Assembly (NCBI GenBank): GCA_043804895.1
Contig: JAZDIN010000033.1
Coordinates: 1 to 23,654 of the forward strand
From: Candidatus Altiarchaeota archaeon
GTDB lineage: Archaea > Altiarchaeota > Altiarchaeia > IMC4 > SCGC-AAA252-I15
Length of the DNA: 23,654 nucleotides
Direction: 5' to 3'
This document shows, one piece after another, positions 2,772 to 23,654 of this stretch. Position numbers and translations under genes: made by a program. Position 1 is the first letter of the stretch. Every line of letters begins with the position of its first letter. Under the pieces are notes generated by a model. It ran no database searches. It was not told the DNA's origin and saw nothing but the letters and a program-made list of their open reading frames with translations.

Positions 2772-3968
2772 TCAGATCAGCTTGTTGTTCATAACCCACT
2801 TGAGGAGACCGAGATTCTCACGCAGGAGTGAAATGTTTTTCCACATATCAGGAGTATTGATGTCAGCCTTCCAGTGGTAATATTGGTTAGGAAGCCACCG
2901 TGTTGTTGCCACCAGACGTCCAATCGCCTCCAAAGGCAGAATCTCATGCTCCAACTTACTTAACCTAGTTATACTCTCATAACCTCTGAGGAACTCTGTA
3001 GCCTTCCTCACATCAACCTTCGAGCCAGTCTTGGAGAATGTTAACATCCCCCATGCCACATCGCATACCCTCTCCCTTGTCCCAGTCAAATCGAAGTCTA
3101 CAAGCCCAACTGACTCGCCTTTGGAAAAGAGGACATTCTCTGGAGTGTAGTCTCCGTGAGCTATCGCCTTAGGAACCGGAAACACAACATCAAGCACCTT
3201 ACCTTTAGAATCATACTCAACACGTAAGCCGATGTCATGGAGGCGTCCACGAATATGTTCTGAGGCCTCCTCCACCAGAGGAGCTGCAGCAAGGACTATG
3301 TCGTCTACGACCGACCTACCAGCCTCCGCCTTATCAACGAACTCGAGCATGCTCCAGGAGACACGGCGCCGCTCCTCCCTAGCATGATATGATACGTCCC
3401 CGCTCCCAGCAGGACTGTAAAACGGGGAGTCAACACACCGGCCTTCAGGCGCGAACTCGTGTATTATCATACCCCACACACCACCTATGTCAGGGTATCC
3501 TATCCGCCCTGCTGAAACAGAATCCTCAAGGACGATACTGGAGGTTTGGTGGTATCGCGCAAGAAACACCCCAGCATTAAAGACATCCCTGAGACTGCCA
3601 TCAGCTTTCACGCCGGAAATCCAAGGACTGACAGAGTACAGCAACCCTTCCACCTTAGCAGCATAGGGCATAGGAAAACCATCCTGGTCCACCTGAACCT
3701 CAGCCCCGACATTCTTCAGGGGAGGCGAAACATACTCGAACCCCTCCTTATGCAACCTCCACAGGAGGTGGTGGGAGAAGTTCAAACCCCTCAGACTAGC
3801 CGCATAATTTATCTGCCTGACAGCCAAATCCCCTGAACCTGAACCCACACGGTAGACTGAGCTTCTTGCACCCCAACTGAAGTCGGCAACAGAACCGAAC
3901 CTAACCCTAAAAGCCTTCTCCAATGCAGGGAAAACATCTTCGATAGCCTTCTCAGGGGAGTGTGTCAT
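2772..3968 (-). CDS. Aminoglycoside phosphotransferase / homoserine kinase type II family phosphotransferase
   Basis: Brenner motif HGDYTPENVLF and VDFD Mg-binding motif; AGVFLARYH helix. Likely ATG start at 3968 (MTHSPE). Confidence 0.8.
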   Translation of the reverse strand: MTHSPEKAIEDVFPALEKAFRVRFGSVADFSWGARSSVYRVGSGSGDLAVRQINYAASLRGLNFSHHLLWRLHKEGFEYVSPPLKNVGAEVQVDQDGFPMPYAAKVEGLLYSVSPWISGVKADGSLRDVFNAGVFLARYHQTSSIVLEDSVSAGRIGYPDIGGVWGMIIHEFAPEGRCVDSPFYSPAGSGDVSYHAREERRRVSWSMLEFVDKAEAGRSVVDDIVLAAAPLVEEASEHIRGRLHDIGLRVEYDSKGKVLDVVFPVPKAIAHGDYTPENVLFSKGESVGLVDFDLTGTRERVCDVAWGMLTFSKTGSKVDVRKATEFLRGYESITRLSKLEHEILPLEAIGRLVATTRWLPNQYYHWKADINTPDMWKNISLLRENLGLLKWVMNNKLI

Positions 3969-4006
3969 AATACATAATACTCCGCAGATAAACAAATAAG
4001 CACGGA

Positions 4007-4690
4007 CTACTTCTCAGACACTCTAGGGAACAGTTTTTCCATTAGCTCCAATCGAGTCTTATTTCTTGGCTCATCTCGGATTGCTTCAATATTTTTTCGC
4101 GTCAAGTCAGATGAACACCTTGCCATCTCTGATAGCTGCCAGTAGCATTCACCCTTCAGTCTAGGGTCTTTCATTTGTGGCACTACCCCCCGCACCACAG
4201 CCGGAAGTAGTGAAGAAGGACATTCCCTTCCAACCTCGCCCAATCTTGATATGGCTATGACCTTCAGTTCAGGGTCATTCTCACTGTTCAAGAACTGTAT
4301 TATGCCATCTACTGCACCGGCATTGATTTCATCCACTGCTCCTTTCTTCCCTATATCGACCAAGTCATCCAACGCAAGCCTCTTCATCTCAGGAGGGATA
4401 CTTCCGCTGTTCAAATATTTGACAATAGCACTCAAAGCATTCAGACTCTCAGTCGTCGGCTTCAACGCCTCAGGGTCAACGCCCACAGGAAACTCCAACG
4501 CCCTCCTCTTCAGCTCATCCAGTATCATAGGCGTCCTATAATGTGACTCCTTACTACCGAGAATTGAAACCAAATCCAGAACACTCTTGGACTTAACATC
4601 ACCGAAACCAGTAAAGAGAACCAACGGCGTATTGCCATCTGATGCATTATCCTTGTTATGCGTCCCTTCTACCCTTATTACCTTAGCCAT
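4007..4690 (-). CDS. Hypothetical protein with HEAT/ARM-like helical repeats
   Basis: Repeated IVKYLNS..PEMKRLALDDL / IIQFLNS..PELKVIAISRLGE pattern. Likely ATG start at 4690 (MAKVIRV). Confidence 0.6.
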   Translation of the reverse strand: MAKVIRVEGTHNKDNASDGNTPLVLFTGFGDVKSKSVLDLVSILGSKESHYRTPMILDELKRRALEFPVGVDPEALKPTTESLNALSAIVKYLNSGSIPPEMKRLALDDLVDIGKKGAVDEINAGAVDGIIQFLNSENDPELKVIAISRLGEVGRECPSSLLPAVVRGVVPQMKDPRLKGECYWQLSEMARCSSDLTRKNIEAIRDEPRNKTRLELMEKLFPRVSEK

Positions 4691-4766
4691 GTAACATATC
4701 CGGAAGTGTAAGAATAAAAGTATCCAAAAGTTAGTCTTATCTAACACTTTTATTGCCCTAAAACCC

Positions 4767-4775
4767 TAATATATT
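4767..4775 (+). promoter_or_regulatory. Putative archaeal TATA box upstream of the truncated tRNA-Ile 5' copy
   Basis: AAAACCC-TAATATATT starts 25 bp before 4792; no TATA-like element directly upstream of the intact tRNA at 4979. Confidence 0.5.
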
Positions 4776-4791
4776 CCCAAACAAAATCAGA

Positions 4792-4808
4792 GGTCCCGTG
4801 GCTCAGTT
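4792..4808 (+). repeat. Exact 17-bp duplicate of the tRNA-Ile 5' end
   Basis: GGTCCCGTGGCTCAGTT at 4792-4808 is identical to 4979-4995. Confidence 0.95.
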
Positions 4809-4978
4809 ACAGCCTTACTATGCACGGTTGGCTCAAGCCAATCGGCACCCCAAAACAGCAAGGCTGTTTTGAGGGAGGCTGGCGAAGGAGGGGCATGCGT
4901 TCGCTTACGCTCACTTAGCCCCTCAGAGCAACGGAGATATGATCCTGAAGTAAGTCAGGTGAGAAACAAAAAACAAAC
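4809..4978. mobile_element. Putative small non-autonomous hairpin-rich insert between tRNA-Ile 5'-end duplicates
   Basis: Hairpins CGGTTGGC-TCAA-GCCAATCG, CAAAACAGC-AAG-GCTGTTTTG and GAGGGGC...GCCCCTC; A-rich 3' end (GAGAAACAAAAAACAAAC); bounded by direct repeats. Mobility is inferred, not shown. Confidence 0.45.
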
Positions 4979-5053
4979 GGTCCCGTGGCTCAGTTTGGTT
5001 AGAGCGTCCGACTGATAATCGGAAGGTCTCGAGTTCAAATCTCGACGGGACCA
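4979..5053 (+). tRNA. tRNA-Ile (anticodon GAT)
   Basis: Cloverleaf: acceptor GGTCCCG/CGGGACC, D arm GCTC/GAGC, anticodon arm TCCGA-CTGATAA-TCGGA, T arm TCGAG-TTCAAAT-CTCGA, discriminator A; CCA not encoded. Confidence 0.97.
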
Positions 5054-5122
5054 TTGTGCCTCAAACCGAAGAAGAGTAGTATCTGTAATCCCTCGAGATA
5101 AGCGAGTCTAAAAGACGAGCGG

Positions 5123-5138
5123 AATCTCGACGGGACCA
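5123..5138 (+). repeat. Exact 16-bp duplicate of the tRNA-Ile 3' end
   Basis: AATCTCGACGGGACCA at 5123-5138 is identical to 5038-5053; CTCGAG (T-stem 5' strand) also recurs at 5092-5097. Confidence 0.95.
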
Positions 5139-5440
5139 AAGAGCCCCTTTCTTTCTTCCCAAGAAAGAATGTGGCTGAGACAAAAGTCTCAGACACACAC
5201 CCGAGCCTGAAAGGCTCGGCTGTGAGGCCCTCGGGTTCAAAGAAAGAAAGATAGGGGCATTCGCTACGCTCAGCCCCTCTGAGTAGGGTAATGCATTCGT
5301 GCCATCAGAGGATGACACAATCCGTTTCCGTGTGAACTGAGGATCAGTTCTGATAATGCATTCGTGGGGCTGAAAGACCAGTGTCTTTCAAGCGTCTCGC
5401 CAGGGCCAAACAACAAAGGTTCTTAGGGCATACTCCTAAA
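5139..5440. other. Dense array of stem-loops downstream of tRNA-Ile (structured RNA or palindromic element cluster)
   Basis: Perfect hairpins at 5149-5169, 5175-5192, 5201-5219, 5253-5278, 5334-5350 and 5371-5390; 13-bp direct repeat TAATGCATTCGTG at 5289-5301 and 5354-5366. Confidence 0.7.
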
Positions 5441-5445
5441 CCGTT

Positions 5446-6189
5446 CTATTTTTGTGATTGGATGTATTTCTTTAATTTTTCCGTATCCGTTAGCCAAGGA
5501 ATTATTTCAGGTATTGAGTGTGGAGTGGCCTCTTTGGGTGAATTTTTGATGCAGTCCTTTACGTAGCCGTTGGTCATACCCCAAACGGCATTAAGCGGAT
5601 CTTGAGGGTTCAGATGTAACTCTTCAGCGTTGGATAATGCCAGAGAGAGGTATGTACTTGAGACCTTTGTAGCTTTGTCGATTAGGGAGGGCGTATGGCT
5701 AATGGCGTCAGGTATATCCTCCCCAAGAGCATTGATGACGGCCCCCACCATGTACCCTGCAACAGTCCTAAGCCGTCGCTGGTGTTCAGCATAATTTTTT
5801 TCAACTTCCTTCTTCCTGGCGAGTGATTCTTCCCAGTTTAGGAGACCTAATGCTTCGGCGTTTTTCCTAAACTCCGAATAGTCTCCCTCCATGGAATCTC
5901 GAGGTACGTTACCGCCCTCCTTCCCATGGTCTAGGATTATGATACTATTTCTTAGAGTTGTCGCCAACATATTAAAGTGCATCCCGTCTAACGGATCAAA
6001 AGTCCCCTCACTGTTACGTTTTAGCGCATGAAATGTGCGAGTTCCCTGGGAATCCTTTAAAAAAACAAACCTGTACTTTTCACCATTATAAGGGGTGGTG
6101 AAGTCAATCTGGTTTTCATCTGTGATGGTTCTCGGAAGGTCTTTAGGTTCGGGAACCCCTCCACTCACAGGCTGCATTTCCTTATACAT
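5446..6189 (-). CDS. Hypothetical protein (247 aa)
   Basis: Long ORF with ATG start, protein-like composition and upstream TTATA-like element; no recognised motif. Confidence 0.65.
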   Translation of the reverse strand: MYKEMQPVSGGVPEPKDLPRTITDENQIDFTTPYNGEKYRFVFLKDSQGTRTFHALKRNSEGTFDPLDGMHFNMLATTLRNSIIILDHGKEGGNVPRDSMEGDYSEFRKNAEALGLLNWEESLARKKEVEKNYAEHQRRLRTVAGYMVGAVINALGEDIPDAISHTPSLIDKATKVSSTYLSLALSNAEELHLNPQDPLNAVWGMTNGYVKDCIKNSPKEATPHSIPEIIPWLTDTEKLKKYIQSQK

Positions 6190-6327: not shown

Positions 6328-6783
6328 ATGCCTTTCACAGGTAATGTGACTGCGGTCCTCGGTAAGGGGTTCGCTGCCGAGTTCGGCCGTAAGGTTACGG
6401 CCAGTGACATCACCCCGTATAATCATAAGTTGGGGGATTGCATACTGTCTTTTGTGGAGCCTTCGGCGTATCCTGAGAAGGTGCAATCTCTGGTCTCGTC
6501 TTTCAACATGGCAGACCAGGTTGTTTTGAAGGTGGAGTCTGTTGACAGCTACCTGGCCGAGTGCATCGTCGCATTGGATGCACTGGGGATGAATAGGGGA
6601 CATCTCGTCTTTAGTGGAAAGGCGAGCCCTGACTCGGTGAGGCCGCTTCTGGCTGGTACTGTCGTCTCGTCGTATGAGGTGTTGGAGAATCAGGTGATGG
6701 CGGTTAAGGAGAGGCTCGCCAGCTTGAGGTATCCCACTGCCGAAGAGGAAAGTGTCAAAGAAGGAGTTGGATTAGGTAAGTGA
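6328..6783 (+). pseudogene. C-terminally truncated archaeal SelB/EF-Tu-like protein (degenerate G-domain only)
   Basis: AVLGK..A.EFGRK.TASDIT.YNHK....SFVEP..YPEK..SL.....MAD and ECIVALD..RPLLAGTV match the N-terminal half of the archaeal SelB-like family as I recall it (about 300 aa). The ORF ends where the beta-barrel domain II should begin. Confidence 0.6.
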
Positions 6784-7375
6784 GTAGGTTGTGGCTTCTT
6801 TTTGATTTAGCAGTTTCCAGCGCGTCTTTGTCCCTGTATTTGAGCGGCATCATCTTCTGCTGCAGCTTAGGGTTATCGCGTTCCATTATCTGCTGGGAGT
6901 CGTAGTACGTCTCCCATAGGCCTTCGTCGTTGGAGAGTTCATTGAGTGTGGGGTTTCGGGGGAGTTTGGATTCTAGGGTTGGCAGTACTTCTGTGAGGGG
7001 GAGGTTGTATCTGATTATTCGGCCGTCTGGTTGTATGACGTCTGTTACTTTGTCGTGTTCCAATGCTATGTGGAATGTCGGGAACCTGTTGTGGAAGTGG
7101 TTGAGTATCAGGTCTGCGACGTCGTGTTCTAGGTTGGTTTTAGCGTAGAGTATGCCGTGTTCTGAGATTTTCAGCCTCATGAAGCCTTTCTTCAGGTGCA
7201 TGCACCTGAGCACTGACCGCTGCATCTCATAGAGCTTCCTTGACTCGGAAGTGGCACAATTTTCAACGAGGGATGGATCTTGTTTAGCGACGGCGTCACA
7301 TAGTCTTTGGTCGAATTCCCTGTGCCTGCGGACTAGGTCGAATACGCCACCGCGCTTCCAGCCTCTTCTTCTCAT
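6755..7375 (-). CDS. DUF4130 domain protein (TIGR03915-like putative DNA metabolism protein)
   Basis: HLKKGFMR, LEHDV..LI..HF..RFP and LWETYYDS......RDNPKLQQKMMPLKY signatures; ATGA overlap with the upstream radical SAM gene. Confidence 0.85.
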   Translation of the reverse strand: MRRRGWKRGGVFDLVRRHREFDQRLCDAVAKQDPSLVENCATSESRKLYEMQRSVLRCMHLKKGFMRLKISEHGILYAKTNLEHDVADLILNHFHNRFPTFHIALEHDKVTDVIQPDGRIIRYNLPLTEVLPTLESKLPRNPTLNELSNDEGLWETYYDSQQIMERDNPKLQQKMMPLKYRDKDALETAKSKRSHNLLTYLIQLLL

Positions 7376-8499
7376 CTGAAGTACTCCGCCAGGGTCACCT
7401 GCCTGTTGCCGTTGATTTTGAGGAAAGGGTCCGCCCTTTTTAGGACTACGCCGATTGAATGAAGTTGGCTTCGTGAGCCGATTCTCACGCGGCTTCTCTG
7501 GAGATTGATTATCCGTTGGGCGCTTTGGGGTCCGATGCCAGGTACCCTGAGTAGTTCATCGTATGTTGCCTCGTTCACATCCACCGGGCCTTGGAAGTTC
7601 TGTCTTGCTAGGTGGACTTTGGGGTCGCCTACGGGGAGGTTGTCGTTGACGAGTATGTCCTTGAATTCGGCAAGTGGTATGCCGTATTTGCGCATCATGA
7701 AGTCGACGCAGTATAGGCTGTGTTCACGCGCAGCCGGTGTTTTGTCTTTTCCTGCAAGAGGGGTTTTCTCGATGGGGGTGAATGCGCTGTAGTAGACTCG
7801 GCGGACGTCCATCCTGGCGTACTCCCATCTTGCTGCTTCTAGTATCTCAAGGTCAGTCTCGTCTGATGCGCCGACAACCATTTGGGTGGTCTGGCCTGAG
7901 GGGAGTTTCAGTTCCTTAATCCACTCCTGGCGGCGGAGTATGTCTGTTGCGTAGTCTTTGACTTCGCTTATCTCAGCGAGCCTAGACTTGTTGGGGGCTT
8001 CAAGGTTTATTGACAGGCGGTCAGCGTATCCGCCGGCTTCTGTTATCAGGTCTTTGTCTGTGCCTGGGAGTACTTTGAGGTGGACGTACCCTTGGAACTT
8101 GTAGTCCTGGCGTATCAGTTTGACTGCCTCAAGCATCCTTTGGGTCGTTGAGTTGGGGTCCCGTGCTATGCCTGAGGATAGGAATAGGCCTTCCACGTAG
8201 TTTCCGAGGTAGAGGTGCATGAAGACTTTAGCAAGTTCCTGCGGCTCGTATGATGCTGGGTTCCTGCCGCAGTGTGTGCTGTTCTGGCAGTATTTGCAGT
8301 CGAAGCTGCAGCTCGTGGTGAGGAGGGTCTTGAAGAGCGACACGCAGCGGCCGTTTTCTGTGAAGGAGTGGCATATGCCTGCTGCGGCCGCGTTTCCTAT
8401 TCTGTCAGTTCCTGCCGTCTTCCTTGTTGAGGATGAGCTTGCGCAGGCGTCCCATTTGCCGGCTGCGCCGAGGATTTTTACCTTGTCTAGGAGGTTCAT
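7372..8499 (-). CDS. Putative DNA modification/repair radical SAM protein with C-terminal helix-hairpin-helix (TIGR03916-like)
   Basis: GICHSFTENGRCVSLFK, CSFDCKYC (CxxxCxxC), GLFLSSG, GYVHLKVLPG, GQTTQMVVGA, and HhH LLRVPGIGPQSA. Confidence 0.92.
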   Translation of the reverse strand: MNLLDKVKILGAAGKWDACASSSSTRKTAGTDRIGNAAAAGICHSFTENGRCVSLFKTLLTTSCSFDCKYCQNSTHCGRNPASYEPQELAKVFMHLYLGNYVEGLFLSSGIARDPNSTTQRMLEAVKLIRQDYKFQGYVHLKVLPGTDKDLITEAGGYADRLSINLEAPNKSRLAEISEVKDYATDILRRQEWIKELKLPSGQTTQMVVGASDETDLEILEAARWEYARMDVRRVYYSAFTPIEKTPLAGKDKTPAAREHSLYCVDFMMRKYGIPLAEFKDILVNDNLPVGDPKVHLARQNFQGPVDVNEATYDELLRVPGIGPQSAQRIINLQRSRVRIGSRSQLHSIGVVLKRADPFLKINGNRQVTLAEYFR

Positions 8500-19397: not shown

Positions 19398-20555
19398 TTA
19401 AAGTATCCTCAAGTCCGTTATGAGCCTGTCCCAAGTGGGATATTCTTCGACGACTGCTGGTCTGAGGCCAATTCCTTTTAATCCTTCGGCGAGTTCCTCT
19501 ACAATCCAGGCCCCCGTGAGTATGCGCAGCCGTGATTCGTCCAGTTCGATTAATTTAGAGTCTAGACTGTACGTCGACTTTATCTTACGCATAGCCGACG
19601 ATATTTTCCTCGTCAACGTCGCCTTCCTCGCAGGTTTCATCCCTTCTACTTTCTCCTTGTATCCGAACGAAGGCACAGTCTCCGGCAGGTAGATGGCGCC
19701 TCGGATGAGGAGGCCTTCTGTAGTCAAGATGTCATATTCCTTCGCGACATTCCTGGCCCTCCGCTTCATCCTATTCCTGAGTTGGACTCCGTCCTTAAGC
19801 TTCACGGTGCAGTAGTGCACCCGCAACCTGGTGTTCTTGGAGCAGTATTTCAAAAGCCTGTCCGCCGTCTCTGAGCTGCCTTTGACTGCGAAGGAGACGT
19901 CGCTTTCCGCCTCGTATCCCCTGCCAAGTAAGGCCTTGGCATTTGTCTCAGACACCTCCATCTGGTTGAGGTTAAGGAAGTGGACTCCCAGCTTGTCTAT
20001 TTCTTTGATGAATTTCACAGTCTCGTTAAAATAGTTAGGCACTACAGGTATCTCGCACCCCACATCCCAGTCATACTTCAAGGCCTCCTCGACTGCCCTA
20101 AGGTCTGCGCCGGCCTTTACAAACTGCGGGTGGAACCGTATCTCATCCAACCCGACACTATGGAGTCTCGCAATAGCCTTCGGTGTTGCGTGTCTGCCAT
20201 CAGTATATAGGTGTATGTGGAATTTCCTGCCGAATTTCCTCTTCAGTAAGCGTATATAGTGTAATGTCCTGTCCAACCTGCAAAGCGGGTCGCCGCCAGT
20301 TATGCCAGCACCTTCCGCGTCACAGAGCCTCGCCTCATCAAGGATGTCTTTGTCCCGTTTCACCCACCATTCGTTCGCGACGACGACATCCTTGTTCTTC
20401 TTCCTCTCGGAGAGCGGACAATACCAGCATCGACTGGAACATACGCCTGTCACGAGGAGCACTAGCTTAGCTCCCTTCACGCAGAGACGGCAGCCCCCAG
20501 GTAGACTGCCAATCCTCCTGCTGTGATACGGGGTGTCGACTACCCTCATGCTCAT
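19398..20555 (-). CDS. Uncharacterised archaeal radical SAM protein (COG2108-like)
   Basis: [49 protein letters not shown] and LDEIRFHP motifs; C-terminal EEYPT.D. Confidence 0.85.
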
Positions 20556-22423
20556 TTGCCGTCTTTGTCGTCGACCTTGTATTCCGCATCGACGACGTTA
20601 TCGCCGTCCTTTCCGCCTTCTTTCTTCTCCCCGCCCTGCTGGCTCTGCGGCTGTTGCTGCTGGTACTTCTGGGCAGCCTCCTGGTAGACTTTGGTGAACA
20701 GCTCCTGGCTGCTCTTGGAAAGCTCCTCAGTCGCCTTCTTTATCTTCTCCACGTCCTTGCCTTTCAAGGCTTCCTTCAGTTCCGCGAGCTTCTTCTCAGC
20801 GTCGGCTTTCTTGTCCTTCTCAAGCTTGTCCCCAAGGTCCTTCATGGCCTTTTCGACCGAGTATGCGAGGGAGTCGCCTGCGTTCTGTGCTTCAGCTGAT
20901 TCCTTCCGTTTCGCATCCTCATCTGCGAATTTTTCCGCATTCTTCACCATCTGCTCGATTTCCTTGTCAGACAGCTTCTTGGATGCGGAGATGGTTATCT
21001 TCTGCTCGTTGCCTGTTCCGAGGTCCTTCGCAGAGACGTGCATTATCCCGTTGACGTCGATGTCGAATGTAACCTCAATTTGTGGGATTCCCCTCGGAGC
21101 CGGGGGTATGCCGACTAGGCTGAATCTTCCGAGCGTCGTGTTGTCTTGGGCCATCGGCCTCTCGCCCTGCTGCACGTGCACTTCGACTGTTGACTGGTTG
21201 TCTGCTGCTGTGCTGAAGACCTGGCTCTTTTTAGTGGGGATTGTTGTGTTGCGGTCTATCAGCTTTGTGAACACTCCGCCGAGGGTCTCAATGCCAAGGG
21301 ACAGCGGCGTGACATCCAATAGTAGTATGTCCTTCACCTCCCCAGCCAAGACGCCGGCCTGTATGGCAGCACCCATTGCCACGCACTCCATCGGGTCTAC
21401 TGCGCGCTCAGGGTCCTTGTTGAAGAACCGCTTAAACGCCTCCTGCACGCACGGCATCCTCGTTGGACCGCCGACGAGTATTATCTTGTCTATCTTGATC
21501 CTGTCGATTTTCGCATCCTCTATCGCCCTCTGCATTGGGGGAATCAGCCTCTGGATTATGTCATCGACAAGCTCCTCGAGCTTCGACCTGGACATGTTCA
21601 TCTCAAGGTGTTTCGGGCTGCCCTCCCGGTCCATTGTGATGAATGGAAGGTTTATGCTCGTAGTCGTAGTCGAGGACAACTCTATCTTAGCCTTCTCAGC
21701 AGCCTCCCTGACCCGCTGGATGGCCTTCTTGTCCTTACTTAAATCGAGACCCTCAACCTTCTTGAACTCGCCGACAATCCAGTCCATTATCCTCGCATCC
21801 ATGTCCGTGCCACCAAGCTGAGTGTCGCCGGACGTTGAGATCACCTCGAACACAGACTCGCCCATCTCCATTATAGTGACGTCGAACGTTCCTCCGCCAA
21901 GGTCAAGGACTGCTATCTTCATCTCCTTCCCGCCCTTGTCCAGTCCATAAGCCAATGCCGCGGCAGTCGGCTCGTTGATGATTCTCTTAACCTCAAGGCC
22001 CGCGATCTTGCCAGCATCCTTTGTGGCCTGGCGCTGGTTGTCGTTGAAGTACGCTGGAACCGTTATCACAGCCTCGTTCACAGTGTCGCCGAGGAACGCC
22101 TCCGCATCCTGCCTGATTTTTTGTAGTATGAACGCAGAAATCTCCTGAGGAGTGTAATCCTTGTTGTTGATTTTTACCTTATAGTCAGTGCCCATCTTCC
22201 GCTTGATAGCCTGAATCGTCCGCTCGGGATTGGTTGCAGCCTGCCTCCTCGCCGGCTCCCCCACCAGACGTTGCCCGTCGGCAGTAAACGCCACATACGA
22301 CGGGAAAGACTTCCCACCGATGCTCGTACCCTCCGCACTTGGGATGATCGTCGGCCTACCAGCTATCATCGCCGCAGCAGCCGAATTACTCGTCCCAAGA
22401 TCAATACCTATAACCTTAGCCAT
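20552..22423 (-). CDS. dnaK: Chaperone DnaK (Hsp70)
   Basis: [25 protein letters not shown] and DVTPLSLG motifs; lacks the N-terminal insert of proteobacterial DnaK. Start ATG 22423. Confidence 0.98.
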
Positions 22424-22910
22424 CCAAAACACCTCCGTTTTTAACAACAACGACCTTCGAAGCTCTAATGACCTTGCCGTTTAACATGTATCCTTTCTGT
22501 ATAACGTCTATTACCGTCCCGTCCGACTTTCCCTTGTCCGCCACGGTCTCGACAGCCTCGTGGAAGTCGTGGTCAAACTTTTCAGTAGGAATCTCAAGAA
22601 CGCCCTCGGCTGAAAGCACTGACATAAGCTGGCTGTGAACCTTCCTGAAACCATCTAAAATCCTAGCTTCACCATCACCCTTAGGCTGAACCTTCAAAGC
22701 AGCATCCATGGTGTCAACGACATCCAACAGCCGCACAACCAAACCTTTGGAAGCGTTCCTCACAAGCTCCCTACGCTCAGCCTCGCTCCGCTTCAAATGA
22801 TTCTCGAAGTCAGCCTGCAAACGCTGCAATAGGATGGTGTACTCCTCAAGCTGTTTCCCCAGTTCATCGGCTTCTGAGCCTTTCTTTTGGGGGTTTTTGT
22901 CTGAGTCCAT
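22416..22910 (-). CDS. grpE: Nucleotide exchange factor GrpE
   Basis: [17 protein letters not shown] and [18 protein letters not shown] motifs. Confidence 0.97.
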
Positions 22911-23464: not shown

Positions 23465-23484
23465 GGGCTCGTAGTCTAGTCCGG
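23465..23484 (+). repeat. Exact 20-bp duplicate of the tRNA-Val 5' end
   Basis: GGGCTCGTAGTCTAGTCCGG at 23465-23484 is identical to 23586-23605. Confidence 0.95.
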
Positions 23485-23585
23485 GAACCTTTTTCTTTCT
23501 TAGGAGAAAGAAAAACGTTCACGAAAAAGAAAGAACAAAAATTTAAACCCACCCAAACATAATACTCAAACCAAAGCAAAAAGAA
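23485..23585. mobile_element. Putative small hairpin insert between tRNA-Val 5'-end duplicates
   Basis: Hairpin GAAC-C-TTTTTCTTTCT-TAGG-AGAAAGAAAAA-C-GTTC (23485-23520) begins exactly at the breakpoint, followed by an A-rich tract. Mobility is inferred, not shown. Confidence 0.45.
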
Positions 23586-23654
23586 GGGCTCGTAGTCTAG
23601 TCCGGTTATGACGTCGCCTTTACGAGGCGAAGACCACCGGTTCGAATCCGGTCG
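23586..23654 (+). tRNA. tRNA-Val (anticodon TAC), 3' end cut by the window edge
   Basis: GGGCTCG acceptor 5' strand, D arm GTC/GAC, anticodon arm TCGCC-TTTACGA-GGCGA, T arm ACCGG-TTCGAAT-CCGGT. Confidence 0.93.

Follow-up and report, generated by a model that had tools for sequence, protein, structure and literature searches.

Partial copies of tRNA genes are a well-known trace of integration in archaea. Integrase-mediated integration of archaeal viruses, plasmids and islands leaves such copies as attL and attR, and the known elements are 1.8-23 kb long, carry a recombinase and are bounded by repeats of about 44 bp (PMC9897764, PMC3293823). In the casposon of Aciduliprofundum boonei, staggered cuts beside a T-loop palindrome at a tRNA 3' end duplicate the target, and the 15-bp duplication is reported to overlap the end of tRNA-Pro by 5 bp (PMC5137440). 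In Thermoproteales, as cited in a 2026 bioRxiv preprint (10.64898/2026.10.13.758758), families of tRNA introns move between positions, so that similar intervening sequences turn up in more than one tRNA gene and at more than one place, and integrons have been reported in Archaea in a paper that does not mention tRNA (PMC9668308). Here we analysed a stretch of 23,654 nt (the window; contig JAZDIN010000033.1 of the Candidatus Altiarchaeota assembly GCA_043804895.1) in which two tRNA genes are preceded by copies of their own 5' ends. A search of the literature found no description, for Altiarchaeota or DPANN, of inserts below 200 nt that have copies of a tRNA end on their flanks.

The inserts differ from integrase-borne elements: they measure 70-190 nt, contain no ORF and have repeats of 9-26 nt at their sides. 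They strike both the start and the end of genes, affect the genes for RNase P RNA and 5S rRNA as well, and are not accompanied by any integrase found in the assembly. Integrase-borne elements would also share the same core at one target, whereas here similar modules carry the repeat of each local tRNA. Regular 16-17-nt copies of tRNA 3' ends do resemble the casposon target duplication, but Cas1 (PF01867) has no match in any of the five genomes of the genus (this one, G000, and all four of the others), the inserts are tiny and lack terminal inverted repeats, the duplication lies wholly within the tRNA, and the 5' copies vary in length; the duplications as a whole, at 9-26 nt, stand against the fixed 14-15 bp of the casposon. 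Being short, non-coding, structured, multi-copy, found in either orientation, flanked by apparent target duplications and variably present between relatives, the modules are also reminiscent of SINE-like retroposons and MITEs, and a multi-copy family with presence/absence polymorphism, as in MITEs, is indeed found (17 matches in this genome and empty sites in others). They are set apart from SINEs by the lack of a reverse transcriptase source in the genus; from MITEs by the lack of terminal inverted repeats and of Y1, TnpB or DDE_Tnp_1 matches in the assembly; and from the two taken together by a duplication length that is not fixed and a strong bias to the ends of stable-RNA genes. A variable target duplication would in itself agree with SINE-type, target-primed retroposition. 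As in the Thermoproteales introns, the same modules occur at different places, here both in canonical introns and in gene flanks; those introns are spliced and have no duplicated exon ends, whereas the working gene is not interrupted by the inserts described here, which are external to it and bordered by copies of its end.

In the window, the first 17 nt of tRNA-Ile are repeated exactly 187 nt upstream and the first 20 nt of tRNA-Val exactly 121 nt upstream (Table 1), as reported in a preliminary description of this DNA. The further details given there were confirmed: the D-loop is where both 5' copies end, a stem is predicted to begin 2 nt past this break at tRNA-Ile and 1 nt past it at tRNA-Val, both inserts end in an A-rich tract, and neither contains an ORF (none of at least 80 aa on the plus strand) or an inverted repeat joining its ends. 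Removal of one repeat and the insert leaves, as had been proposed, a promoter-tRNA arrangement, which is collinear with the empty site of the same-genus genome G004. The two A/T-rich blocks ahead of the outer tRNA-Ile copy, which we regard as a putative promoter, are the same as those that directly precede the intact tRNA-Ile in the same-genus genomes G004, G003 and G001. The predicted fold of the insert ahead of tRNA-Ile has -76.9 kcal/mol and a z of -5.4, and that of the tRNA-Val insert is weak (z -1.6). A predicted helix pairing the tRNA-Ile stub with the insert tail was not relied on, because the copy ahead of tRNA-Lys, on reading of its sequence, has no matching complement. The trailer of tRNA-Ile is 97% identical over 110 nt (5140-5249) to the canonical intron of tRNA-Thr(GGU) at C4:79464-79573. 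The remainder of tRNA-Val lies on contig C47, which overlaps the end of the window by 141 exact bases and carries the gene's own insert Y and an 18-nt 3' copy. Copies of the 3' end accompany both tRNAs (16-18 nt, exact, 68-69 nt downstream) and had been overlooked.

Table 1. Features of the tRNA-Ile and tRNA-Val loci in the window.
Feature	Position	Strand	Basis or remark
Promoter-like A/T-rich blocks (putative)	4745..4773	+	ahead of outer 5' copy
Outer copy, tRNA-Ile positions 1-17 (candidate target duplication)	4792..4808	+	17/17 = 4979-4995
Insert X: K-turn-type module and tail	4809..4978	+	predicted fold, homologous copies
Insert X, closing helix (predicted)	4810-4815/4876-4881	+	
Insert X, two inner hairpins (predicted)	4821-4847 and 4848-4875	+	
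Insert X, K-turn-like hairpin (predicted)	4888-4924	+	
Insert X tail, small hairpin	4944-4959	+	
Insert X tail, A-rich end	4963-4978	+	
tRNA-Ile(GAU), working gene	4979..5053	+	ARAGORN; Rfam 73.8 bits
Insert Y: linker, 11-nt complement, inner hairpin	5054..5122	+	predicted folds
Insert Y, 11-nt complement to tRNA-Ile T-stem and acceptor 3' strand	5089-5099	+	
Insert Y, inner hairpin	5102-5120	+	
Outer copy, last 16 nt of tRNA-Ile (T-loop to discriminator)	5123..5138	+	16/16 = 5038-5053
Trailer modules: long hairpin around double hairpin, then K-turn-like hairpin	5140..5283	+	
Long trailer hairpin, arms	5143-5157 and 5244-5258	+	
Trailer, K-turn-like hairpin	5253-5283	+	
Outer copy, tRNA-Val positions 1-20	23465..23484	+	20/20 = 23586-23605
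Insert ahead of tRNA-Val: pyrimidine/purine hairpin module, A-rich tail	23485..23585	+	fold, inverted repeats
Pyrimidine/purine hairpin	23485-23520	+	purine tract on to about 23538
tRNA-Val insert tail, A-rich with two A/T-rich boxes	within 23485..23585	+	
tRNA-Val(UAC), 5' 69 nt	23586..23654	+	runs off contig end; anticodon TAC

The inserts at the two tRNAs are not the same element: the preliminary description had missed that they belong to different families, a K-turn-type module at tRNA-Ile and a pyrimidine/purine hairpin module at tRNA-Val. Multi-copy families nevertheless exist, as it had anticipated. Homologues of insert X are found at C11:54004-54113, ahead of tRNA-Lys, and at C25:107595-107712; the tRNA-Ile and tRNA-Lys inserts are 94% identical over 83 nt, and each is flanked by the repeat of its own local tRNA. 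R1, a covariance model of the K-turn-type module, was used to count copies, and matched 17 times in this genome (in insert X at 4856-4928) and in 24 of 40 relatives, with 0-22 copies per genome. Of the 15 pairs of its helices, eight have changed on both sides, which none of 500 shuffles reached. The module contains what we take to be a K-turn-like motif, suggestive of L7Ae binding. Rfam families matched at gathering score were limited to tRNA, 5S rRNA, RNase P RNA and 23S rRNA, and at E up to 1 the five loci searched gave no module family and one chance-level match overlapping a tRNA. Modules of the pyrimidine/purine type also open canonical introns, follow tRNA 3' ends and sit between clustered tRNAs.

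Of 11 K-turn-module copies, seven have at least 11 nt of their left flank repeated on the far side of the module, compared with 13 of 3000 random sites, and in these seven the repeat ends 0-6 nt from the first helix. The duplicated sequence is always local, tRNA-Ile, -Lys, -Phe, -Arg and -Val being among the sources. There is also a 22-nt duplication at the 3' end of the RNase P RNA gene, where the module is in reverse orientation, a 13-nt duplication at the 3' end of 5S rRNA and a 9-nt duplication at one site between protein genes. With this distribution, the earlier idea that the element recognises tRNA structure is not supported. Duplications are 9-26 nt long, and 58 nt at tRNA-Phe; we know of no transposase that a length this variable would fit. 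The right ends of the inserts vary as well, with tails of 14-97 nt, and several R1 modules begin 1-2 nt past a tRNA 3' end with no duplication. Fifteen of the 17 R1 matches are co-oriented with the neighbouring stable-RNA gene, the other two being the reversed copy at RNase P RNA and a match at C52:29909, whose neighbourhood was left out; this bias could reflect an RNA-level role rather than free transposition. A-rich tails are found where the insert precedes a tRNA and are absent from the RNase P, 5S and intergenic copies, and the empty tRNA leaders of relatives are A-rich too. Target-primed retrotransposition, which the target duplication and A-rich tail had brought to mind, is not supported, because no reverse transcriptase was found: RVT_1 has no match in the five genomes of the genus, all incomplete MAGs, and matches 1 of 20 same-family genomes. 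Cas1 matches 2 of the same 20. In this assembly, which is 88.7% complete, there was likewise no match to RVT_1, Phage_integrase, Y1_Tnp, the TnpB zinc ribbon, Resolvase or DDE_Tnp_1, including the tyrosine and serine recombinase families (PF00589, PF00239).

The search of every tRNA gene proposed in the preliminary description was carried out with the 5' or 3' 25 nt of each of the 26 tRNAs, taking copies of at least 11 nt within 400 nt on the expected side. Five tRNAs have such copies on the 5' side and five on the 3' side, nine genes having either, and the wrong-side controls gave 0/26 and 0/26. In the same-genus genome G003, end copies accompany 19 of 27 tRNAs (wrong-side controls, 0 and 1 of 27), and in G026, from another family, 3 of 22 tRNAs have them on the 5' side and 2 of 22 on the 3' side. 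With near-zero wrong-side controls, the counts in this genome and in G003 indicate a general phenomenon rather than two coincidences. End copies are also carried by the RNase P RNA and 5S rRNA genes. Genome-wide there are 87 exact direct repeats of at least 14 nt, not of low complexity and spaced 40-400 nt apart, about 17 of which, by reading of the list, lie at stable-RNA genes.

Comparison with relatives, which had also been called for, revealed both filled and empty orthologous sites, at tRNA-Ile and at RNase P RNA. The inner tRNA-Ile is the conserved gene, intact in all 11 relatives' loci examined. On its 5' side, the site is empty in G004, G005, G013 and G028, and G003, G018, G007 and G008 are filled with other modules at other break points (13-23 nt). 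The 3' end of RNase P RNA is filled in G000, G004 and G006 and empty in G003 and G002. The tRNA-Val(UAC) gene of G003 has a different module, and its locus is not syntenic with the upstream gene of the window. Outer copies are often perfect although the nearby sequence has diverged, and at the tRNA-Ile loci they follow the position-7/66 change of their own tRNA across genera. They are better kept than expected, and recent re-insertion, gene conversion or selection is therefore needed. Among sequencing runs, none contained more than a tenth of the sampled words, and no RNA run was listed among those with matches. Four runs that were aligned covered nothing beyond the tRNA, apart from a portion of the trailer module in one of them.

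In appearance, the 3' copies are unlike the 5' copies. They have fixed limits, from T-loop to discriminator (16-17 nt), a fixed spacing of 68-75 nt, and occur in tandem arrays of up to three units. In all six units folded, the 3' copy and its complement form a predicted hairpin with one bulged base. At tRNA-Ile, in the predicted fold, the complement at 5089-5099 pairs with 5124-5135 of the outer copy, with a single bulged base at 5131 and a 4-nt 3' tail left over, a shape that may correspond to the acceptor/T-arm-like minihelix, ending at a discriminator base, of a t-element. The layout of insert Y, with the complement fitted to each tRNA, recurs at two tRNA-Val genes, at tRNA-Ser and at many tRNAs of G003. 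Copies of the tRNA-Glu 3' end bound three cassettes of 0.7-1 kb, which encode an NYN protein and a MazE/ParE pair, and two of the three distal copies have the same hairpin. Integron attC sites form arrays of units that each end in an imperfect hairpin with an extrahelical base. The 3' copies, regularly built hairpins that delimit small gene cassettes as well, appear somewhat integron-like, and the likeness, which applies to the 3' side, extends to small cargo such as toxin-antitoxin pairs. They differ in that the tRNA's own end provides the 3' arm of the hairpin, and the assembly yielded no integron integrase. Such sites may be a new kind of cassette platform.

The best reading of the 5' copies, and one that we consider somewhat probable, is the recurrent insertion of small non-autonomous modules with a target duplication of variable length. 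Small, non-coding, structured modules would have entered tRNA genes within their first 11-26 nt and would each time have duplicated the stretch between two staggered breaks, so that the complete gene survives downstream of the insert; the upstream copy would then be a target duplication, made by the insertion itself. The old promoter would now drive a long structured leader, which RNase P, whose RNA gene is present in the genome, would presumably remove. The process would be recurrent and fast-turning, would affect both ends of stable-RNA genes, and would draw on several module families, the same ones that populate tRNA introns and trailers. If the insertions are active, they show a way in which mobile DNA can enter a tRNA, RNase P RNA or 5S rRNA gene and leave it undamaged, because the duplication rebuilds the gene. 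Recurrent insertion, if true, would also offer a route by which tRNA leaders, trailers and introns become filled with shared modules, a route to fragmented tRNA genes in archaea, and a sign of insertion or repair activity beyond recognisable transposases in genomes that lack them. A broader proposal, possible but doubtful, is that Altiarchaeota harbour an undescribed form of DNA movement without known transposases, integrases, Cas1 or reverse transcriptases, in which tiny structured modules enter the ends of stable-RNA genes with long and variable duplication; at tRNA 3' ends, the related hairpin of tRNA end and complement would be where an integron-like cassette system docks, with the tRNA gene as attachment site.

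Break repair with no dedicated element could yield a similar picture. Where stable-RNA genes are heavily transcribed, breaks at their ends, caused by a nuclease or by conflict between replication and transcription, would be followed by copying of the sister chromosome past the break and by filling from abundant local modules through template switching, leaving a duplication and a templated insert. Such repair would be in keeping with the failure to find a transposase, integrase, reverse transcriptase or Cas1 in this assembly, with ill-defined right ends whose tails resemble ordinary tRNA leaders or inter-tRNA spacers, with 3-nt overlaps between D-loop and module start seen on reading some junctions, and with duplications that vary in length and upstream limit, mostly starting at tRNA position 1, but 12 nt ahead of it in G008 and 44 nt ahead at tRNA-Phe. 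We nevertheless think it unlikely: the left end of the K-turn module is sharp in the seven copies with a repeat, a single family spread over more than half of the relatives resembles an element and not random filler, and no nuclease could be tied to the sites, the one LAGLIDADG_3 match lying inside a 512-aa frame far from any tRNA. Site-specific recombination, under which the end copies would be cores of the att type and each insert either a minimal cassette or what is left of an integrated element, would suit the fixed limits, fixed spacing, tandem arrays and hairpins of the 3' copies and the cassettes at tRNA-Glu, and has precedent in the partial tRNA copies left by integration. The 5' copies, however, have variable break points (11-26 nt) and no complement or hairpin, tRNAs that differ in their cores harbour near-identical modules, the recombinase searches of the assembly were negative, and the inserts are far smaller than the 9-23 kb elements of the cited work. 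We hold this explanation to be quite unlikely.

The copies might instead be kept for a job at the RNA level, the leader and trailer structures controlling or marking processing, the 3' hairpin serving as a 't-element', a minihelix resembling tRNA that RNase Z or RNase P would cut, and the modules being small RNAs released from tRNA precursors. The co-orientation of modules directly abutting tRNA ends, the presumed L7Ae-binding motif, the complement in insert Y that covaries with each tRNA and outer copies that track their own tRNA all argue for such a role. T-elements have been reported from Haloferax and plant mitochondria (PMC4326828, PMC1920247). We judge the RNA-level explanation very unlikely, since several relatives keep the tRNA but have lost, shortened or decayed outer copies or none, the modules are reversed at RNase P RNA in two species, the copies per genome vary so widely, and no Rfam family matches. 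Non-canonical introns in the D-loop or T-loop, with the outer copies as exons and the inner copies intronic, are disfavoured and highly improbable. The genome does contain many long tRNA introns (15-256 nt by ARAGORN), the same modules lie inside canonical introns, and a correct tRNA would result wherever in the repeat the splicing took place. Unlike the segments around a bulge-helix-bulge intron, however, the outer tRNA-Ile copies are not conserved, being decayed in G001, truncated in G004 and G007 and missing on the 5' side from 4 of the 11 loci, whereas every locus keeps a complete inner gene; at tRNA-Ser, the outer 3' copy would break a pair in the acceptor stem; and the minimum-free-energy folds show no helix uniting the two junctions. 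The chance of an assembly artefact is close to nil. The tRNA-Val locus does lie at a contig end and the junctions are known from the assembly alone, but the same architecture is present in independent assemblies of at least ten other genomes, and a repeat present in two copies, one at each tRNA-Val locus, accounts for the contig break.

Several smaller candidates were set aside. The idea that a 5' stub is the spare half of another, split tRNA was dropped because every stub matches the adjacent complete gene. Derivation of the tRNA-Lys stub from tRNA-Met, with which it has 14 nt in common, was rejected, as the last bases of the stub fit tRNA-Lys. On C2 and C45, tRNA 3' ends are matched over 14 nt inside coding sequence, but the hairpin is missing there and the two matches are probably fortuitous. 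Annotation of tRNAs is misled by such stubs and long leaders. In this genome, ARAGORN called 26 tRNA genes and the Rfam model 17 at E ≤0.01.

The window is contig C33 of an assembly, here called G000, that totals 1.58 Mb in 71 contigs (51% G+C, 88.7% complete). Each of its two tRNA genes is accompanied by outer copies of its own ends, separated from the complete (inner) gene by an insert (see table). The upstream duplicates of the first 17 nt of tRNA-Ile and the first 20 nt of tRNA-Val, reported in the preliminary description, proved exact; overlooked there were exact copies of the last 16-18 nt of both genes, lying 68-69 nt downstream. The end of the window has 141 exact bases in common with the reverse complement of contig C47. 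Since the tRNA-Val(GAC) locus on contig C15 has the same 3' gene part, downstream insert and 3' copy as tRNA-Val(UAC), the contig break is attributed to this repeat common to both tRNA-Val loci. The end duplications at the two tRNA genes are real. The flanking genes, all on the minus strand, encode an APH-type phosphotransferase (2772-3995), a DUF4130 protein and, adjacent to it, a radical-SAM protein with helix-hairpin-helix motifs (6755-8499) and DnaK (20552-22450); the ORFs on either side of the tRNA-Ile locus (4007-4747 and 5446-6189) had no Pfam match.

Coordinates of the tRNA genes of the window and of the outer copies of their ends
Feature	Position	Match
tRNA-Ile(GAU)	4979-5053	
Outer 5' copy, tRNA-Ile nt 1-17	4792-4808	exact
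Outer 3' copy of tRNA-Ile	5123-5138	exact
tRNA-Val(UAC)	from 23586, continues past contig end	
Outer 5' copy, tRNA-Val nt 1-20	23465-23484	exact
Outer 3' copy of tRNA-Val	on C47	exact

As the preliminary description had envisaged, every tRNA gene was scanned for copies of its own ends, using 400 nt on the stated side and copies of at least 11 nt. Among the 26 tRNAs found by ARAGORN in G000, five have a 5' copy upstream, five a 3' copy downstream and nine either one, with wrong-side controls of 0 and 0; this tally omits the 5' copy of tRNA-Val(UAC), whose flank is cut on C47. The corresponding numbers for the 27 tRNAs of G003, a genome of the same genus, are 11, 11 and 19 (controls 0 and 1), and the complete genome of a member of another family (G026, 22 tRNAs) has three 5' copies and two 3' copies, one of the latter being a generic T-loop word (controls 0 and 1). 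End copies of tRNAs thus exceed chance and are general. Exact direct repeats of at least 14 nt, spaced 40-400 nt apart and with low-complexity sequence left out, number 87 in G000, among them repeats at the 3' ends of the RNase P RNA and 5S rRNA genes. The ARAGORN set is small, with introns of 15-256 nt, and by our reading mislabels at least three tRNAs (Glu, Gln and a Ser); interrupted tRNAs beyond this set are suggested by a T-arm scan, as at C25:36560-36704 and at the end of C20.

The insert ahead of tRNA-Ile (4809-4978) has a strong fold (z -5.4). Its predicted structure comprises a closing helix and two inner hairpins, a further hairpin whose sequence signature we read as suggestive of a kink-turn, and a tail that has a small hairpin and ends in an A-rich stretch. 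Identity with the insert preceding tRNA-Lys is 94% over 83 nt, and with a copy sited between two protein genes 85% over 115 nt. Six sequences with 15 pairs went into a covariance model for the short form of the K-turn-type module; 8 of the pairs changed on both sides, a number equalled by none of 500 shuffles. The model matched 17 places in G000 at E <=0.01 and detected the family in 24 of the 40 relatives, copy number per genome ranging from 0 to 22. By our reading, 15 of the 17 matches have a tRNA, 5S rRNA or RNase P RNA gene no more than about 200 nt away and, the RNase P RNA copy excepted, share the orientation of that gene; five start 1-2 nt past the last base of a tRNA. A different module precedes tRNA-Val. 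It combines a pyrimidine/purine hairpin with a purine tract behind it and was also found at the start of canonical introns, after tRNA 3' ends and in tRNA-cluster spacers. The trailer that follows the outer 3' copy of tRNA-Ile (5140-5249) matches the canonical intron of tRNA-Thr(GGU) at 97% identity. Two Rfam searches gave no name for any of these modules.

Duplications accompany the modules. The left 30 nt of 11 K-turn-type copies were compared with the 300 nt that follow the module start. A shared stretch of at least 11 nt and at most 26 nt, whose end lay 0-6 nt from the module, was present in seven, against 13 of 3000 random G000 positions; the duplicated stretch was always local sequence. 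The 3' end of the RNase P RNA gene of G000 (C58:9721-9837, locus L095) is repeated over 22 nt, 95 nt apart, with a K-turn-type module reversed relative to the gene. The same site is empty in G003 and G002; in the same-genus genome G004 (C161, L119) it has its own 20-nt duplication and a reversed larger module of the family, and in the relative G006 (C1, L112) a 19-nt duplication surrounds an unrelated 200-nt insert. The 5S rRNA 3' end of G000 likewise recurs 167 nt away, in a 35-nt repeat that includes 13 nt of the gene end and trailer. In G003 an 18-nt 5' copy accompanies tRNA-Val(UAC) together with a K-turn-type module, unlike the module at this gene in G000. Taken together, the duplications and modules fit insertion that was recurrent and independent and that duplicated the target. 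The RNase P RNA gene lies just downstream of the 23S rRNA 3' end. After the 5S rRNA gene (C30:415-812, L096) there are two K-turn-type modules with a reversed pyrimidine/purine hairpin module between them, the 35-nt repeat covering the last gene bases plus trailer and the module start.

If the outer copies were exons and the inserts were spliced out as introns, the outer copies should be needed. Examination of the tRNA-Ile(GAU) loci of 11 relatives argues against this. The inner tRNA-Ile is intact in all 11, and the 5' copy is present in five (break points 13, 14, 16 and 23 nt, with differing inserts), one of these being split by an additional insert; one same-genus genome retains it in badly decayed form, and four relatives lack it. 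Among the latter is G004, in which conserved promoter-like blocks directly adjoin the gene, an empty site of the kind the preliminary description had anticipated. The 3' copies are present in five relatives, tandem-doubled in one and reduced to 7-8 nt in two, and at tRNA-Ser(GGA) of G000 the outer 3' copy would give an acceptor-stem mismatch. Because outer copies are lost, decayed or cut down while the inner gene persists, the inner gene is, judging from these comparisons, the working one and the outer copies are dispensable. RNase P RNA was detected in G000 (81.5 bits), so a long leader could be removed.

The earlier idea of a small element was broadly right; its option of target-primed retrotransposition found no support. 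The G000 assembly had no match to RVT_1, Phage_integrase, Y1_Tnp, TnpB zinc ribbon, Resolvase, DDE_Tnp_1 or Cas1. RVT_1 was matched in none of four same-genus and one of 20 same-family genomes, and Cas1 in none of four and two of 20. Insert tails vary, an A-rich tail occurs only ahead of tRNAs, and empty tRNA leaders are likewise A-rich, so that the tail is weak evidence of retroposition. There are no terminal inverted repeats at the insert ends of the tRNA-Ile and tRNA-Val loci. Insertion with target duplication has two serious rivals: repair, in which breaks at gene ends were mended with templated filler, and an RNA-level role of the co-oriented modules. The outer copies are often perfect despite diverged neighbouring sequence and, at tRNA positions 7 and 66, track the change specific to their lineage, which calls for recent re-insertion, gene conversion or selection. 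Not even a Xer-type recombinase was found in G000, which is odd and may reflect its 88.7% completeness.

On the 3' side the pattern is more regular and looks like that of a second system. Downstream inserts measure 68-75 nt, the 3' copy invariably spans T-loop to discriminator, and each insert holds an 11-12-nt complement of the copy, matched to its own tRNA. The complement is predicted to pair with the copy in a hairpin that has one bulged base and encloses an inner hairpin. The units occur in tandem arrays of up to three, in which the inserts differ and the copies are identical or nearly so. Downstream of a gene on C4 that ARAGORN calls Ser and we read as tRNA-Glu(UUC), copies of its last 14 or more nt also delimit three cassettes of 0.7-1 kb (C4:91558-94294, L180), which encode a protein with a NYN domain and a MazE/ParE-type pair. 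The complement-hairpin-copy structure is found at two of the three distal copies. The units resemble cassette arrays with folded recombination sites, although an integron integrase was not found in G000.

Partial tRNA copies are the textbook footprint of integrating elements. The phenomenon is known in kind, as target- or att-type duplication at tRNA genes, but differs in its miniature, ORF-less form, its presence at both gene ends and its extension to other stable RNAs. In the literature searched we found no account of ORF-less modules below 200 nt flanked by copies of stable-RNA gene ends. In the archaeal integration cases of PMC3293823 and PMC9897764, the DNA concerned measures 1.8-23 kb and comes with a recombinase, and the repeats are about 44 bp long. 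The 3' copies resemble the casposase target at the tRNA T-loop described in PMC5137440; Cas1 was not found in G000. Families of tRNA introns common to several genes occur in Thermoproteales, as cited in bioRxiv 10.64898/2026.10.13.758758.

The pyrimidine/purine hairpin with a second purine tract, a mirror-repeat layout, starts most long canonical introns and follows many tRNA 3' ends in G000, and it optionally contains, always at the same point, a nested 57-nt double hairpin. In several tRNA trailers, the K-turn-type module is followed by a second conserved module, located at 5284-5380 in the window and also present after tRNA-Pro, Met, Gly and Val(GAC), the two making a composite trailer of about 130 nt; a 13-nt word occurs twice in the Ile trailer (5289-5301 and 5354-5366). 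A 171-nt contig from a soil metagenome run carries the trailer hairpin module (window 5141-5248) in permuted order, differing by 3 substitutions and an insertion of one base, and the module is thus present in at least one other sample.
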